Below are positions 1-5,776 of a DNA stretch of 30,981 nucleotides, in pieces (the first letter of the stretch is position 1; every line of letters starts with the position of its first letter). The stretch spans positions 1 through 30,981 of the IMG/VR virus record IMGVR_UViG_3300026187_000059; one strand, given 5' to 3'. Position numbers and translations under genes: made by a program. Source of the stretch: a virus. Its lineage: Duplodnaviria > Caudoviricetes. The notes beneath the pieces were generated by a model. It made no database searches, was not told where the DNA came from, and saw only the letters and a list, made by a program, of their open reading frames with translations.

Positions 1-50
1 GTGTTGCACAAAATAGCACATTTATCGCCATTTTTCCTCAAAATCAACAC

Positions 51-77
51 TAACACCTCCTTGGTAACAAGGTGTTA
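51..77. other. Bulged hairpin with GTAA tetraloop
   Basis: taaca(51-55)/tgtta(73-77) and ccttg(59-63)/caagg(68-72) close a gtaa loop. Also contains GTAAC-N5-GTTAC (64-78). Confidence 0.45.
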
Positions 78-175
78 CACCCCATAAACAACAATTCCGA
101 CAACCTTTGTGTAAAATTGTGCATTCTTTTCTTGTAACATATAGAGAAATCAGTACCTTAAAATCAACAACACAC

Positions 176-334
176 AACAACACACAAAAGGAGACCCTAT
201 GATTAATGATGCACTGACTTTATTAGTCCATTTCGGTATAGTTGCAGTTCTACTTTATTTTGTCAGGGAGTTTTTCGGAGAATAGTTTATAGCCGGGGTT
301 TTCCAATTAAGTAACAACACACAAAAGGAGACCC
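176..334 (+). repeat. Exact 22-bp direct repeat containing a Shine-Dalgarno sequence (176-197 and 313-334)
   Basis: aacaacacacaaaaggagaccc occurs at 176-197 and 313-334. The first copy overlaps a tandem caacaacaca x2 (165-184). Confidence 0.95.
199..285 (+). CDS. 28-aa single-TM hydrophobic peptide (type I toxin-like or superinfection-exclusion-like)
   Basis: AGGAG 5 nt before ATG199. Manual translation MINDALTLLVHFGIVAVLLYFVREFFGE* gives a hydrophobic core and charged C-terminus. Not in the ORF track. Confidence 0.7.
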   Translation: MINDALTLLVHFGIVAVLLYFVREFFGE

Positions 335-337
335 CGG
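293..337. terminator. GC-rich stem between convergent genes (possible terminator or regulatory switch)
   Basis: ccggggt(293-299) pairs with accccgg(331-337), extendable by G-U pairs. The loop is large and there is no clear U-tract. Confidence 0.45.
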
Positions 338-356
338 TACAAAGATCTTATAATAT

Positions 357-2783
357 TTAAGCTACAGATAAAAGTCCTGAGTTTAATTTAGCCATGGTAA
401 TTCCCTTCTTGCCAATTTCTTCTTTCATTTCAGGTGTAATCTCAAAGTAAGGTAAACTATCAATAGTTACTGGTTCAATTCCAGTACCTTCGTACTCCAT
501 ATCATATTCAGATCTTAAAAACTGTTCAACCAATACATCGTCATTGATGTTATTTACAATATCGGTATCTATACCTCGATATCTTTCATATTTGTAAAAC
601 TCTTCTCTTAACTTTTCATCATTTCTTACATCATAAAAAGCATCTTCAATCGTTTGAGCATCTCTAAGAGGCGTATCATCAATAGGTTGGCCAAAACTAA
701 TGGTTGTATCAATATTATCGCTGTATGCACCACTCTCTGTTTTGTAGTTAGGTACATAACTTAGTTTGTTGTTATATTTTTTTAAATATTTATTCAAGAA
801 AGATGGAAGTATCTTATCATAAAAACCAGTCATTCCTTCTCCACCAACCTTTAAATCTAAACCAGAATAAGATAGACCATCAATATTTATAAATTCACCT
901 TTTTGTTCTAATATTTTTGCTTCTTTGTAATTTTCTAAAATATTTTTTTCTTTTAAATCTTTAGTAATTTTTGCAGATAATTCTTTTCCAACATATTCTT
1001 CTAATTGATCGGGATATATATGATTTCCATATATCTGATCTTGATTATATTCAGAATATGCTTGTAAATAAATTTTGCCATCTGCTTTATCTGATGGGCT
1101 AATTTGTATATTATCAATGTAATTTGCTAAATTATATCTTTCAGTTTGAACTTCACCTGGAGTATAAGCAACTGCTTCAAAACCATTATCGACAGCATAT
1201 TTAATTAATCTCTTCATGGTGAGTTCATGCCAGTTCTTTTTAAATGGAGTATCCTGGACTTTCTTTTTATTGTCTTGAACTAATCTTTCTCTTTTTTCTA
1301 TTACGTCTTGATATTTTTGTTCGAGATTTTTAATTTCATTTATTTGATTGTTATAATCATCTTTTGTTAAGCTTGGTAGTTGTTCTTCTAGGTCAATTAT
1401 ATTTTTTTTAATTGATCTCATTTCATTGTTGAGATTATTGACATTCATATTGTAATCAGACTCTTGATAACCTTTTTTTCTACCTCGTTGATGAAGATCA
1501 GATTGTATTTCTTCAATAAATAAAGTCTTTTTGCCCTCAATTTCTCTTTCATTAAATCTTGCATGAGAAATCAAAAGATTTTCACTAGGAAAATCAGAAC
1601 CAGAAAAGTGGCTTGAATTAAAGTTAATTACATTTTGAGTGGGAAGAGTAATTAATAATTCTTTATAATTATCTCCACCAGGTAAAGTATATGACTCGTA
1701 CTTAGGCCTAATTGTTGCATCTTTTTCTGTTATTCCATGAACATAATACAAATAATCGTTGATTGCATTTTGTTCTTCTTGGCCCTCTAATTCTTCGAAA
1801 TTAGTAGTAGCTTCACTTCTTAAAGTAGTTGATCCTGTAGCTGGATCATTAACTACTAAATCTTCTCCTGAGGCATTATAAAAACTTTTAAAGTCTTCAT
1901 ATAAGTCGTAATCGTTATTAACAACAAGTTTTGCATCTTCAATGCTGTTAACATCTTTTAAAGAGTCAGGTAAAAATAGTCTTGATTTCACAAATGATAT
2001 TTGTTTGCCACTACCTAAATCACCTAAAACTACATCATTAATTTTAGTAGAGATATTATTCTCTAGGATATAGTTATCTAATTCTTCTTTTGTAACTTTA
2101 TCTTTGCCTGAAAGAAAATTATCTAATCCTGTATCGACAATCTCAGATTGTTTGATGCCTGGCATATTATTTATTTGGTTTAAGATCTGTTGGCCTGAAC
2201 CAGAATTAAAATTCATATCCAGGACAGCTTCAGCTAAAACAGAATAATAAGGATTGGATGACTCTGATAATAAACCTTCTTCAGTCTCAGGAGCTTCTTC
2301 GGCAGTTAAAATATAATCAGATAAGAGAGATTGATCTGGCATTGGAGTTGTATTACTAAAATCCAAAGGATCTATTTCGGGAGTTGTTAAGAGACCTGAG
2401 GGTTGTTCTACTTCAGGTGTAATGAGAATATTGGATTGATCGTCTTGAGTTGCTGTTGTTATTTTCTTGTTAAGTTCTTCATTAAATTTGTTTTCAGCAT
2501 CAATAGCTCCCAGGTCAGGAGTCAGGATAGAGCCTGATGGGGTATTACGGATGTCATTAAGGAAGTTGATTGCCGGGCTAGAAAAGAAGTTCATACCTTC
2601 CTGGATCATGTTAGAGTTACCCAGGATACCGGAGTTGATTGTTTCTTCAGTAGCTTTACCACCCAGGATACCACCAGTAACAAGTCCAGTGCTTTTTACA
2701 GGATCTGATAATAGAGACCGAACACCAGCCATAGCTCTCGGTGCATACTGAAAAGCTTTAATTCCTAAATTTAATAAACTCAT
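357..2783 (-). CDS. Large polyvalent-type / probable injected virion protein with LFIEEIQSD domain
   Basis: 808-aa ORF with a low-complexity N-terminus. Motifs HARF..LFIEEIQSDLHQ, PFKKNWHEL.MKRLIKYA..NGF and GM.GFYDK recur in large phage proteins. Confidence 0.6.
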   Translation of the reverse strand: MSLLNLGIKAFQYAPRAMAGVRSLLSDPVKSTGLVTGGILGGKATEETINSGILGNSNMIQEGMNFFSSPAINFLNDIRNTPSGSILTPDLGAIDAENKFNEELNKKITTATQDDQSNILITPEVEQPSGLLTTPEIDPLDFSNTTPMPDQSLLSDYILTAEEAPETEEGLLSESSNPYYSVLAEAVLDMNFNSGSGQQILNQINNMPGIKQSEIVDTGLDNFLSGKDKVTKEELDNYILENNISTKINDVVLGDLGSGKQISFVKSRLFLPDSLKDVNSIEDAKLVVNNDYDLYEDFKSFYNASGEDLVVNDPATGSTTLRSEATTNFEELEGQEEQNAINDYLYYVHGITEKDATIRPKYESYTLPGGDNYKELLITLPTQNVINFNSSHFSGSDFPSENLLISHARFNEREIEGKKTLFIEEIQSDLHQRGRKKGYQESDYNMNVNNLNNEMRSIKKNIIDLEEQLPSLTKDDYNNQINEIKNLEQKYQDVIEKRERLVQDNKKKVQDTPFKKNWHELTMKRLIKYAVDNGFEAVAYTPGEVQTERYNLANYIDNIQISPSDKADGKIYLQAYSEYNQDQIYGNHIYPDQLEEYVGKELSAKITKDLKEKNILENYKEAKILEQKGEFINIDGLSYSGLDLKVGGEGMTGFYDKILPSFLNKYLKKYNNKLSYVPNYKTESGAYSDNIDTTISFGQPIDDTPLRDAQTIEDAFYDVRNDEKLREEFYKYERYRGIDTDIVNNINDDVLVEQFLRSEYDMEYEGTGIEPVTIDSLPYFEITPEMKEEIGKKGITMAKLNSGLLSVA

Positions 2784-3001
2784 GATCCTTGTGTTTTAAT
2801 CGGTGCTTCTAAACAAGCTAATTTATGTTGTGTTAAAGTGGTTTGGCGTAGCTCCAGGGCCACTGCATCAATGAACTCAATATCTCTATTGCATTCTTCT
2901 TTCGTCATATACTTACGAGCAAATGACGTACAGTGAGGGTCGACATAGTTTTGGGTTAGATAAGTACATAGATATCCGACCAAGAAATAAACCTTAACCA
3001 T
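2780..3001 (-). CDS. Hypothetical small protein with hydrophobic N-terminus and 4 Cys
   Basis: 73-aa ORF with an ATGA overlap to the downstream gene. Confidence 0.7.
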   Translation of the reverse strand: MVKVYFLVGYLCTYLTQNYVDPHCTSFARKYMTKEECNRDIEFIDAVALELRQTTLTQHKLACLEAPIKTQGS

Positions 3002-3329
3002 CGCAACTCTTTAACCACTCCTTTAATTCTGATTTATAAAATAACTCAGTAATGCCATTAGACATTCCGTTGACTATCGACTCTTCGTCTTTGTCTTTGA
3101 GTAAATAGATATAGTAGATCGCATGACAGAGTTCATGGATAACCAGGTTCTTACTGTCGACATCATTTCGATCAATAATGTCTTTATCTAAATAAATTTG
3201 GTAGGGTGGTTTACTCAGAAAACACCCTTGCATTTCGCAAACATTGTAGGCTACATCATGATCGATGGGAGTTAGGTAAATTTTAAAATGTCCTATACTG
3301 ACGTATTCAGGAAGAGATATTTTTTTCAT
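2994..3329 (-). CDS. HEXXH zinc metallopeptidase-like protein
   Basis: LVIHELCHAI followed by EE..V. The probable start is ATG3329 (MKKISLP), not the track's 3356. Confidence 0.7.
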   Translation of the reverse strand: MKKISLPEYVSIGHFKIYLTPIDHDVAYNVCEMQGCFLSKPPYQIYLDKDIIDRNDVDSKNLVIHELCHAIYYIYLLKDKDEESIVNGMSNGITELFYKSELKEWLKSCDG

Positions 3330-3417
3330 TACATTCCTGGCATCGACAAATTGCACATTCGCACATACAAGTCATTCCTTGATGACAGATACAGCCACAG
3401 CTTTCGCATTTGCTCAT
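3307..3417 (-). CDS. Metallothionein-like Cys-rich peptide (36 aa)
   Basis: TAATG-coupled to the upstream gene. Manual translation MSKCESCGCICHQGMTCMCECAICRCQECNEKNISS* has 10 Cys and 1 His. Confidence 0.75.
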   Translation of the reverse strand: MSKCESCGCICHQGMTCMCECAICRCQECNEKNISS

Positions 3418-4034
3418 TACTTCTTTTTAGTTTTTTTCTTCTTATCTTTTTTCTTATTCTTTTTTCCGTTGATCTTGTTAGCAGTTTTCTTCATGCCTCT
3501 CATATCGTTTATTCTCCTTTGTAGTTCTTGCCTGTGTAAGACAGTTGCTTTGTAGTAATCCTTCTCCCAATGATTGTAGTAACCTACTCTCTTGAGTTTT
3601 TCGGATGCCTCTTCAAGATCTTGATAGCGTTGTATCAACACCATTGAAAATTCGTTTGCTGTTTTAAACTCGTGATCGTAAAGAAAATCTATGTCATCAT
3701 CTCCGGTCTCTGGATGCGAGGCCATGAGATAAACATCTTTGGGCATATAAGCAAAATTCAAAGCTTCTATCGCTGATGATAATTCTGTTGCTGATAAAGA
3801 TAAATCAGAACACCCAATGACTACGATACGATATCGAGTTCGTTTTAATTTATTGGCCCAATCAACCACCAGGGGAATAAGTTGTTGAGCTTCATGAAGT
3901 TCTTCAATCTTAAAAGTATTTTGTATTCGACATTGTTGAGCATAAGGACAAGTTGGAAAGTTACCCAGGTGTTCATTAGGTTTTTCTATTACCTCTTTTG
4001 ACCACCGGATAATATCGTCTTTAATACTAGCCAA
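3417..4034 (-). CDS. DUF1415-like protein with Lys-rich C-terminal tail
   Basis: W...VIE......F..CPYA and SHP motifs resemble DUF1415. The last 28 aa contain 15 Lys. Confidence 0.55.
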   Translation of the reverse strand: MASIKDDIIRWSKEVIEKPNEHLGNFPTCPYAQQCRIQNTFKIEELHEAQQLIPLVVDWANKLKRTRYRIVVIGCSDLSLSATELSSAIEALNFAYMPKDVYLMASHPETGDDDIDFLYDHEFKTANEFSMVLIQRYQDLEEASEKLKRVGYYNHWEKDYYKATVLHRQELQRRINDMRGMKKTANKINGKKNKKKDKKKKTKKK

Positions 4035-4284
4035 ATGTTTTTACATTGGTTGGTTTACCACCAACACCTTGTCTTTTGTTTCTCTTTCTTCTTACAGCTG
4101 ACTTAATTTGTGCTGAAGTCATACTGTTTGCTTTTGATCTTGGAACACACTTTGGATATTTTCTTTTGGAGCCTTTAGTGGATGAGCGACCACAACTTGC
4201 AAAGCTTCCATCTTTTTTCTTCGATCCAATATCAACCCAGTCTTCCTTGAACCACTTGGTTAATCCTCCACTTGCTCTACTCAT
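4027..4284 (-). CDS. Small basic protein, DUF5872-like C-terminal half
   Basis: GLTKWFKEDWVDI..CGR..YPKCVP..RRKR motif. Confidence 0.65.
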   Translation of the reverse strand: MSRASGGLTKWFKEDWVDIGSKKKDGSFASCGRSSTKGSKRKYPKCVPRSKANSMTSAQIKSAVRRKRNKRQGVGGKPTNVKTFG

Positions 4285-4439
4285 GCTTTTTTGGTTCGGT
4301 ACTTACCACCTCTTTTTTTATAAGTTTTTACCAACCAGGCATTCGCATAAGCACTTGGATAAACATCAAATTTTTTCTTTGCTTCACTTTTTACTCGTGC
4401 ATACAAAGCTCTATCTACGGGTACATTCTGAGAGGCCAT
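4281..4439 (-). CDS. Small basic protein, DUF5872-like N-terminal half
   Basis: LYARVK.EAKKKF.VYPSAYANAWLVK.YKKRGGKY. The probable start is ATG4439 (TAATG coupling), with an ATGA overlap to the next gene. Confidence 0.65.
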   Translation of the reverse strand: MASQNVPVDRALYARVKSEAKKKFDVYPSAYANAWLVKTYKKRGGKYRTKKA

Positions 4440-4690
4440 TAACAGTTCCACATCTTTCTTGACCAATAATTAGCTGATAGTCGATTATTCGTGCCTTTAA
4501 TACCACCTGACCTAGCACAATAAGATTTTTTACGATCAGGATTATTCTTCTTAATAGACATACCTTTTGCACCAAAGTTAACTTTCTTTACTCTTCCGGT
4601 GCTAGGGTCTTTGACGAATACTTTAAATTTTTTAACATCACCAGCCATGGGTTTGTTGAGGGTGACTTTTCTTCCTTTGTATTCTGCCAT
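4439..4690 (-). CDS. Small basic protein, DUF6321-like
   Basis: KKFKVFV..KVNFG..M...NPDRKKSYCAR..SANYWSRK.W motif. Confidence 0.65.
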   Translation of the reverse strand: MAEYKGRKVTLNKPMAGDVKKFKVFVKDPSTGRVKKVNFGAKGMSIKKNNPDRKKSYCARSGGIKGTNNRLSANYWSRKMWNC

Positions 4691-5073
4691 TACTTTTTAC
4701 CCATGAATTTTGTTAGTGAACGTAATCCAAAGCTACTTGCAATAGCTCCATACATGGCAAATTGGAACCAGGATGGAGTTGCAGATAAGGCATTAAACCC
4801 TCTTTCGACATAAGGTTGAAATGGTGGAATAAAACATCCAGCAATAATCATGATAAATAAAATTGTCCAGGCTTCGTCTTTCCAGCTATCTCCACTTTGT
4901 TCGATTGCTTTTAAGTCAAAATCAATTTCACCAGCTATTTGTTTTTCCATTAACTTAGTCTTTGCTTTGATCTCGGTAAGTTTGTTTTCAGCTTTTGCTT
5001 TTTTTGTTTCGACTACACCTTTAACAACATCACCGGCTACACCTAATAATGGTTTCACTAACATTCCCCACAT
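4690..5073 (-). CDS. Holin-like membrane protein (3TM-holin type)
   Basis: SWKDE.WT motif and two C-terminal hydrophobic helices ending IASSFGLR. Adjacent to the lysozyme. Confidence 0.7.
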   Translation of the reverse strand: MWGMLVKPLLGVAGDVVKGVVETKKAKAENKLTEIKAKTKLMEKQIAGEIDFDLKAIEQSGDSWKDEAWTILFIMIIAGCFIPPFQPYVERGFNALSATPSWFQFAMYGAIASSFGLRSLTKFMGKK

Positions 5074-5513
5074 TATATATCCCTCATTCTTTCTGCTAGT
5101 TCTTCACATCTATTTTTTGTTTGATTTCTCCACCGGCTGTCGAGCATTTGATAATGAGCTTCAACAAAGTCTGACTCCTGGAGAGCTTTAATCATCATCT
5201 TAAAATTTTGGACACCTTTATATCCAAGTTGATAAATCATCTCACACAAGATAGACATCATCTCTTCATTATCTGGTAAATTATAAGTCTCACATAAAAC
5301 CTCAGTTGAATCCCAGGCTTTATCAAAATCTTTATCAAAGATAGCTAACCAACCTTCTTCGGTAGTTGGGATTTCTTCACCGGGTAATATTTTGTGACCC
5401 CATCCACCAGTCTGCCAGGACTCTGTCACTCCGTTATAAGTTAGGTTGTATGGCTCTAGCCTATAACCTTCATGTTTTTTTATTGATTGTTTTGTTTTTT
5501 CTTTGATGTCCAT
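5073..5513 (-). CDS. Endolysin, T4-type lysozyme (GH24-like)
   Basis: IKKHEG.RL..Y...TGGWGH, M.YQLG..GV..FK.M and MLDSRW..QT.NR match the T4 lysozyme pattern. Confidence 0.88.
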   Translation of the reverse strand: MDIKEKTKQSIKKHEGYRLEPYNLTYNGVTESWQTGGWGHKILPGEEIPTTEEGWLAIFDKDFDKAWDSTEVLCETYNLPDNEEMMSILCEMIYQLGYKGVQNFKMMIKALQESDFVEAHYQMLDSRWRNQTKNRCEELAERMRDI

Positions 5514-5776
5514 TATTCACTTGCTATTTCTCCAGCTATACCCAGGTAGCCACAAGCATCCACATAATCATCAGGATTTACTTTGCCTATCTTGGTTCTA
5601 GCTATCTTTAATAGAGCCATCATGACTGCTACTTCATGAGCAGTAAACTCCACGCCTTTATAGGCTGACCAGAGCTTGGCAATATTAATATGGTTCGTAG
5701 TCATGTCGCCATGTTGATCGTTACGATCATTATTGACGAGCTGTGATGCTATATTGAGGATGTCACTGTTTTTCAT
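5513..5776 (-). CDS. DUF6378-like protein
   Basis: DR..QHGD...N...IA.LWS.Y, VA.MM.LLKIAR and D.YVD.CGY motifs. The probable start is ATG5776 (ATGA overlap). Confidence 0.75.
   Translation of the reverse strand: MKNSDILNIASQLVNNDRNDQHGDMTTNHINIAKLWSAYKGVEFTAHEVAVMMALLKIARTKIGKVNPDDYVDACGYLGIAGEIASE

Follow-up and report, generated by a model that had tools for sequence, protein, structure and literature searches.

We found that a short leader sequence, repeated ahead of early genes of a phage, is accompanied by one gene-less (orphan) copy that is clamped in a stem. The window, which is the whole stretch of DNA analysed, is a single phage contig of 30,981 bases. Comparison of relatives indicates that the orphan was replaced along with the leader motif between lineages, and that the element is real and conserved; it is probably a new phage multi-target antisense RNA. 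In the explanation that we consider best, and in which our confidence is about evenly balanced, an antisense RNA of ~47 nt would be transcribed from the minus strand (338→292) by its own promoter and would silence two to three early leaders together in trans, as a standing threshold in the lysogen.

The portal, terminase and major head genes of the window lie on its minus strand. Window 1-5581 recurs with 0 mismatches in another contig, L183 (36.8 kb), which also holds the arm missing from the window; since this contig is independent, an assembly artefact is ruled out. Relatives were drawn from viral and metagenome scans, and genome scans for relatives gave no match. The layout of the relatives is lambda-like. 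Rightward, an HTH repressor-like gene is followed by a short ORF, a PD-(D/E)XK nuclease, an SSB-like ORF (labelled from its position and low-complexity tail, with no family match) and an HNH protein; then come an xis-like ORF (our own assignment), a tyrosine integrase, a complete tRNA-Thr(GGT), a 55-aa ORF and an attP-like region; and last come a small unit with a membrane peptide and the hairpin, which faces the end of the late operon. The tyrosine integrase points to a temperate lifestyle, and cluster-mates of the integrase and the repressor, named 'Alphaproteobacteria bacterium', are on a 139.7-kb contig (with MDA8668211.1), which fits a prophage. Among GenBank phages, there was no DNA relative of window 1-400 and no close integrase or exonuclease, and the search of GTDB gave no prophage via the integrase and no exact match to the phage tRNA arm. 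The top bit score for the portal, the best among the 25 of 305 matches listed, was to Pelagibacter phage HTVC106P (41%); the annotation of that phage has no integrase, and therefore the portal match does not fix the host. The features of the window are collected in Table 1.

Table 1. Features at the left end of the window, in window coordinates; promoters, RNA ends and att function are predictions.
Feature	Position	Strand	Remarks
attP-like region	5..123	.	Arm-like repeats 5-20 (minus) and 108-123 (plus); core TTGGTAA 61-67
Promoter candidate P3, TTGTAA-N16-TACCTT	132..159	+	Putative; predicted start 166
Leader 3	166..197	+	A/C-rich; partial tandem copy 166-175, exact 22-mer 176-197, GGAG Shine-Dalgarno 190-193; predicted RNA target
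28-aa single-helix membrane peptide	199..285	+	Only constant gene of the att-proximal unit; invariant His
Candidate antisense RNA, ~47 nt	292..338	-	Stem 337-331 with 299-293 (7 bp) clamps the U/G-rich region complementary to the leader and Shine-Dalgarno; putative ends and expression
Orphan copy of leader	313..334	+	No start codon after it; template of the RNA pairing region
RNA promoter candidate	345..372	-	Putative; -10 TAAGAT (350-345), poor -35 TTTATC (372-367), predicted start 338
Last late-operon gene (808 aa)	357..2783	-	Stop 19 bases before the stem

A sequence-only reading of this DNA had pointed to a 22-mer copied exactly at 176-197 and 313-334, with no start codon after the second copy, and both points were confirmed. 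No third copy with ≤3 mismatches exists in the 30,981 bases, and none of the shuffles gave two 22-mer matches (0/100). Whichever gene opens the small unit has the upstream copy as its leader and Shine-Dalgarno. In the window this leader (leader 3) is mostly unpaired in the fold (0.88), and the predicted binding of the RNA to it is -21.0 kcal/mol. Three leader positions were found. Leader 1, which heads the exonuclease-SSB-like-HNH-xis-integrase chain, stands before the ORF that comes first behind the repressor-like gene. Leader 2, which is present only in the window lineage and L174/L175, precedes the SSB-like gene and lies within the last codons of the nuclease (exonuclease) reading frame. 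Leader 3 precedes the first ORF after the att region, which opens the att-proximal unit that holds the peptide. All six window-lineage loci that are long enough (L183, L176, L177, L123, L129 and L106) have three leaders and one orphan, and L158, L159 and L160 have two leaders and one orphan; some of the loci bearing leaders and orphan are near-identical strains. The distant exonuclease-xis-integrase operon opens with the same leader in every lineage with enough sequence. When loci were scanned generically for a leader accompanied by a stem-clamped copy, the arrangement turned up in 55 of 61 family loci, a redundant set, and in 0 of 124 other loci (1.13 Mb); the three motif types found all belong to one narrow family.

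Promoter-like sequences appear to have their predicted start where leaders 1 and 3 begin, or close by. The plus-strand promoter proposed earlier, TTGTAA-N16-TACCTT, stands in part: the sequence is present and relatives have a -10-like hexamer at the same distance from the leader as in P3, but the candidate is below the threshold of the consensus scan. Promoter candidates for leaders 1 and 3 and for the RNA in L183, L158, L159 and L160 mostly read TTG...-N16-TA..., with a 16-base spacer, and several of them are without the last T of the -10 box.

The main evidence for the element is that its two parts change together. In relatives at ~70% integrase identity, another word has taken the place of the leader motif, and this new word is found in the orphan too. 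When an orphan is compared with the leader that fits it best in its own genome, the longest exact match is 18-22 bases (19-21 in L158-L160), compared with only 5-8 bases across the lineage divide. We calculated predicted binding, including the cost of unfolding, for 20 leaders and 7 RNAs. For leaders of the same lineage the values were -5.5 to -21.4 kcal/mol, and several duplexes with leaders 1 and 3 were modest (-5.5 to -8.9); across the lineage divide they were -4.0 to +2.1 kcal/mol, and for the plus-strand (sense) copy -1.0 to +2.9 kcal/mol. In a sliding scan the leaders outranked every other segment in nine of ten loci, with leader 3 of L177 in fourth place, a ranking that arises partly by construction.

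The differences that remain between orphan and leader run in one direction. With leaders located by independent anchors, the 12 distinct orphan/leader pairs on the same contig contain six internal differences (four distinct), all of which are C>T or A>G in the leader; such changes would be tolerated because a minus-strand RNA reads them as G·U. A fifth distinct wobble-type difference is found in L175, where the orphan is on another contig. In adjacent non-coding DNA, transitions occupy 10 of 32 variable columns, which gives 0.31^4 = 0.009 for four events, a figure that concerns only 4-5 events and a duplex edge that was set after the data had been seen. At that edge, 3 of the 12 pairs have a T/A mismatch. 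One metatranscriptome contig has C>T at 196, which is consistent with wobble and was not counted.

Recombination or gene conversion (cassette swapping) could also keep the repeats alike, the hairpin then only marking or protecting transcript ends, with no RNA-RNA regulation. The first genes of the unit are indeed swapped freely behind the leader, and the tandem duplication and longer exact match of the window leader look like recent copying. However, with the mutation spectrum seen locally, gene conversion would not leave only such differences as G·U pairing allows, nor does it sit well with a leader 2 inside the exonuclease reading frame; a hairpin with a 30-base loop is also not terminator-shaped. 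We consider this explanation very improbable. The 10-base tandem duplication before the 22-mer (window 166-175) is in none of the other nine units, which suggests that the window leader was recently recopied from the orphan.

The orphan lies in a hairpin whose stem is conserved by compensated changes. The minus strand of 286-345 folds with z = -5.2, and 0 of 200 shuffles were as stable, whereas the fold of 160-345, which the earlier reading had proposed as a check, is not unusual on the plus strand (z = -1.0). The outer GC stem has 7-8 pairs in 7/7 loci, and stem positions 1, 3 and 7 changed on both sides with pairing kept; these changes are all Watson-Crick and strand-neutral. The plus-strand hairpin folds nearly as well (-18.7 to -19.2 kcal/mol, against -19.3 to -21.0 for the minus strand), with the A/C-rich part in an open loop and GGAG partly buried in the stem. 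These properties bear on the view that the small-unit mRNA carries a decoy at its 3′ end, the plus-strand hairpin, which would display the leader in a loop and titrate a phage translational repressor or a host RNA-binding protein that binds the leaders. The comparable plus-strand fold, its open A/C-rich loop and the strand-neutral covariation speak for such a decoy, but a protein site does not predict one-directional wobble-type differences, the burial of GGAG counts against it, and the promoter-like geometry runs along the minus strand; on balance a decoy is improbable.

With regard to the minus-strand promoter, a hexamer starting with TA ends 6-7 bases before the stem in 7/7 loci, and in all seven the predicted RNA start coincides with the stem's first base or is adjacent to it. 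The -35 is TTGTAA or TTGAAA in 3/7 loci and poor in 4/7, including the window; the site in L159 passes the consensus scan, and in the window lineage the poor -35 lies inside the last codons of the late gene. No intrinsic terminator was found at the hairpin in the window, L160 or L159, and none in window 1-1200; nor does a U-tract follow the stem on either strand. Owing to this lack of an intrinsic terminator, the 3′ end of the RNA would need trimming back to the stem.

The minus-strand late gene does stop at 357, as had been noted, so it must be asked whether the RNA could be the processed 3′ end of the late transcript, in which case late transcription would shut off the early recombination and integration genes and the peptide. 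No terminator separates the late stop from the stem, the two are 19-63 bases apart in five of six loci measured (in L158 the scan placed a gene 255 bases away), and the -35 of the window lineage is poor. Against this origin stand the coincidence of the predicted start with the first base of the stem, the good -35 in three loci, and the fact that the last late gene varies between lineages while the -10-like geometry stays. The promoter geometry thus favours an RNA with its own promoter, and we regard a late-transcript origin as unlikely, although it carries some weight. In three metatranscriptomes, parts of the region are present as contigs of other strains, which carry no strand, ends or level. 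Searches against Rfam gave only chance matches in window 1-600 and only the tRNA in four loci of 8.5-12.9 kb.

The late gene itself is variable. Compared with L176, L177 and L134, its interior (window 357-2783) is swapped between strains and its product is 609-816 aa; two relatives have 38-40% identity, with the N-terminus and the last codons kept, and these last codons overlap the -35 region of the candidate RNA. Relatives of the 808-aa protein are mostly in other phages with different neighbourhoods (24 of 80 loci inspected, among the matches listed).

We then consider the peptide encoded between the two copies. The 28-aa transmembrane ORF described earlier was confirmed, with a best 19-residue hydropathy of 2.13 (1.92-2.29 across 9/9 peptides). 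The peptide is present in 10/10 distinct attP-to-hairpin units, one of them identical to the window; the repeat and the hairpin are conserved as well. Members are 28-32 aa long with invariant Met, His and Leu in the alignment, and synonymous changes were seen in 6/6 pairs of peptide genes compared. A profile search of 1.84 billion representatives returned 10 peptide relatives, and one cluster includes a uvMED phage protein; BAR20577.1 is among the more distant peptide relatives. No family in Pfam, NCBIfam, PHROG or PDB was above the cut-off, and a divergent peptide had no match among GenBank phages. The gene is real, and the peptide is a new small family. Two sub-threshold matches, Sarcolamban (E 0.009) and TIGR04561 (E 0.025), were discarded, as were Atlas scores of 0.76-0.77, which are under the informative range.

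The peptide comes first among the unit's genes in only 3/10 distinct units. In the other seven, an ORF of 80-163 aa holds the leader and the peptide is without a GGAG Shine-Dalgarno; in 6/7 of these units the upstream ORF has a stop that overlaps the peptide start, and the peptide may therefore still be RNA-controlled through translational coupling. In hok/mok, a toxin is controlled through a coupled upstream ORF. Behind leader 1 in two relatives (L158 3440-3514, L159 3569-3643), the first ORF of ~57 aa is reduced to a 24-aa uORF whose stop overlaps the nuclease start, which points to a coupling role rather than a protein function.

The sequence-only reading had taken the locus for a type I toxin-antitoxin system of the Fst/par type. 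What it got right is that the repeat has a function and that an RNA read from the minus strand across the second copy probably obstructs the ribosome-binding region, with a par-like geometry. A dedicated pair, made up of a toxic peptide and an RNA whose purpose is to silence it (for prophage addiction or for abortive infection), would agree with this geometry and with the RNA size, as par is described in PMC7472228 in part, and with the peptide being the only constant gene of the unit, hydrophobic and RNA-controlled directly or by coupling. The leader, however, belongs to the first gene of the unit rather than to the peptide and also opens the distant recombination and integration operon, the peptide has neither an Fst/Ldr signature nor a family match, and there is no shared intrinsic terminator. 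We judge a dedicated pair highly improbable and do not retain the Fst/par assignment; a toxin role may be one output of a multi-target RNA.

An internal switch on the plus strand had also been suggested, with segment 293-303 pairing with either copy. When the plus-strand RNA is taken at full length, the left arm is paired almost only with the downstream copy in 8/8 loci (summed pairing 11.9 in the window), and its pairing with the Shine-Dalgarno copy is ≤0.03 (0.0 in the window). Pairing with the Shine-Dalgarno copy occurs only in a transcript cut before the second copy, and in such cut transcripts it is strong (8.1) only in the window itself, one of eight loci, compared with 0.1-3.6 in the others. 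The switch was therefore rejected as a conserved mechanism. The probability that GGAG is unpaired is 0.03-0.89 over the eight loci, and 0.14, 0.20 and 0.57 where the peptide is first.

The attP-like core and the arm-like repeats are conserved in L174, L158 and L160. The core flanks match their own reverse complement at 8-9 of 13 bases and are thus symmetric, and the 7-base core is identical to the anticodon loop of a tRNA-Thr(GGT), which in relatives follows the tyrosine integrase. Crossover within the anticodon loop of a tRNA is a mode of integration, and an att function of this region is what its layout suggests. If the core is at 61-67, leaders 1 and 2 would be at the opposite prophage end from the RNA and the peptide unit, and control would thus act in trans. 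The complete tRNA-Thr(GGT) is ~440 bases upstream of the core, directly after the integrase (L183 6935-7470; L158/L160 6940-7470), and the flanks of the core have no resemblance to a tRNA half, which suggests that integration breaks the host tRNA-Thr and that the phage supplies a whole replacement. GTTAC/GTAAC words cluster by both rightward promoters, the repressor start and the att region (L158 3300-3410, L160 3200-3310, window 64-78 and 133-138); these clusters are possible operators or integrase core sites.

Under the antisense explanation that we prefer, a host-type promoter belonging to the RNA itself would start transcription at the stem's first base, and the stem would protect both RNA ends. 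The U/G-rich region would nucleate on the unstructured A/C-rich leader and then cover the Shine-Dalgarno, by which initiation would be blocked; downstream genes, including the peptide when it is not first, would follow via translational coupling. By analogy, the most likely role of such an RNA would be that of a standing threshold: in the lysogen it would silence transcripts of recombination/excision and of the peptide that arise from leakage, and induction would outrun it. Because the seeds are lineage-specific, its action would be restricted to kin.

Compared with known systems, the element is par/Fst-like in geometry and C4-like in logic and is a member of neither family. The sections of PMC7472228 on par/Fst of the Enterococcus plasmid pAD1 describe a convergent RNA of ~40 nt that reads a direct repeat of the translation-initiation region. 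As in par/Fst, the initiation region and the convergent RNA gene share a direct repeat, with a membrane peptide of ~30 aa between the repeats; unlike par/Fst, there is one repeat rather than DRa and DRb, no shared bidirectional intrinsic terminator, further target copies are several kb away and the leader is not tied to the peptide (PMC7472228, same sections). The Fst/Ldr signature given there comprises a P/D/S/TxxxG motif, a conserved Trp and a C-terminus that is highly charged; in contrast, the motif is in 0/9 of the present peptides, Trp is in 2/9, and no Fst/Ldr model of Pfam or NCBIfam matched.

According to the secondary account in PMC5320573, C4, an antisense RNA found in phages P1 and P7, has as its pairing partners repeated boxes located at ribosome-binding sites, and small matched changes in RNA and target set specificity between related phages. 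The present boxes likewise co-vary with the RNA between related phages, here in sequence and predicted pairing. On the details given in that account, C4 has three stem-loops, is ~77 nt and is cut by RNase P, whereas the candidate has a single clamped stem of ~47 nt, no Rfam match, a gene opposite the direct repeat, and predicted targets in recombination/integration and accessory units rather than an antirepressor operon. The SAS of cluster K mycobacteriophages, in the portions of PMC3203893 and PMC11373665 that concern it, is a repeat containing the Shine-Dalgarno, conserved beyond rRNA pairing and located before non-structural genes, with a role stated to be unknown. Leader repeats plus one gene-less copy, as seen here, are described there for some cluster K phages. 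The differences from these descriptions are that we found 2-3 copies of 17-22 nt (SAS, 11-19 copies of 13 nt), that the lone copy has the same orientation and is in a compensated stem (the lone SAS copy is opposite), that the motif is replaced between lineages along with the lone copy, and that the host phylum is different.

GcvB, in the part of PMC3879156 that deals with it, silences mRNAs with ACA-rich translation enhancers, and the predicted pairing of the candidate is similar, since it involves, in several mRNAs, an ACA-rich stretch immediately upstream of the Shine-Dalgarno; unlike GcvB, it is phage-encoded, ~47 nt long and has near-perfect complementarity of 17-23 bp derived from a duplicated DNA word, and no sequence relation to GcvB was found. 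Phage antisense control of life-cycle or exclusion genes is also exerted by OOP, aQ, sar and sas, which, as summarized in passages of PMC12197685, overlap a single target, while the candidate RNA lies apart from several targets. None of the phage antisense RNAs in the relevant passages of PMC7067206 and PMC12197685 has the present layout, and a literature search that covered few subscription journals gave no description of the candidate RNA.

Few phage RNAs that regulate several of their own operons in trans are known. If the proposed antisense RNA is true, an RNA layer is added to lysis-lysogeny control in uncultured marine alphaproteobacterial phages. The three seed types with matched target changes are natural swap controls, which make reporters with cognate and non-cognate pairs decisive. 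A repeated leader with one gene-less copy clamped in a stem is also a general signature that can be searched for, and it bears on the start-associated repeats of phages. We further put forward, tentatively and with some doubt, that a par-type direct-repeat RNA may have become a genome-wide regulon and an RNA immunity layer, in which the excision/recombination operon and the peptide are silenced in trans and seed swaps give rise to heteroimmune lineages. If that were so, an RNA at one prophage end would silence the operon at the other end, release of the membrane peptide would punish prophage loss, and the start-associated repeats of other phages, for which there is no explanation, would gain a worked model.

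Unrelated phages, too, commonly have the window-type leader as a strong leader. The same A/C-rich leader was observed in L100, L108, L114, L116, L121, L125, L126, L138 and L143, where it precedes a family of genes of 70-94 aa that start M-S-x-x-T/N-P-Y/F-E; there it is possibly another conserved leader element.
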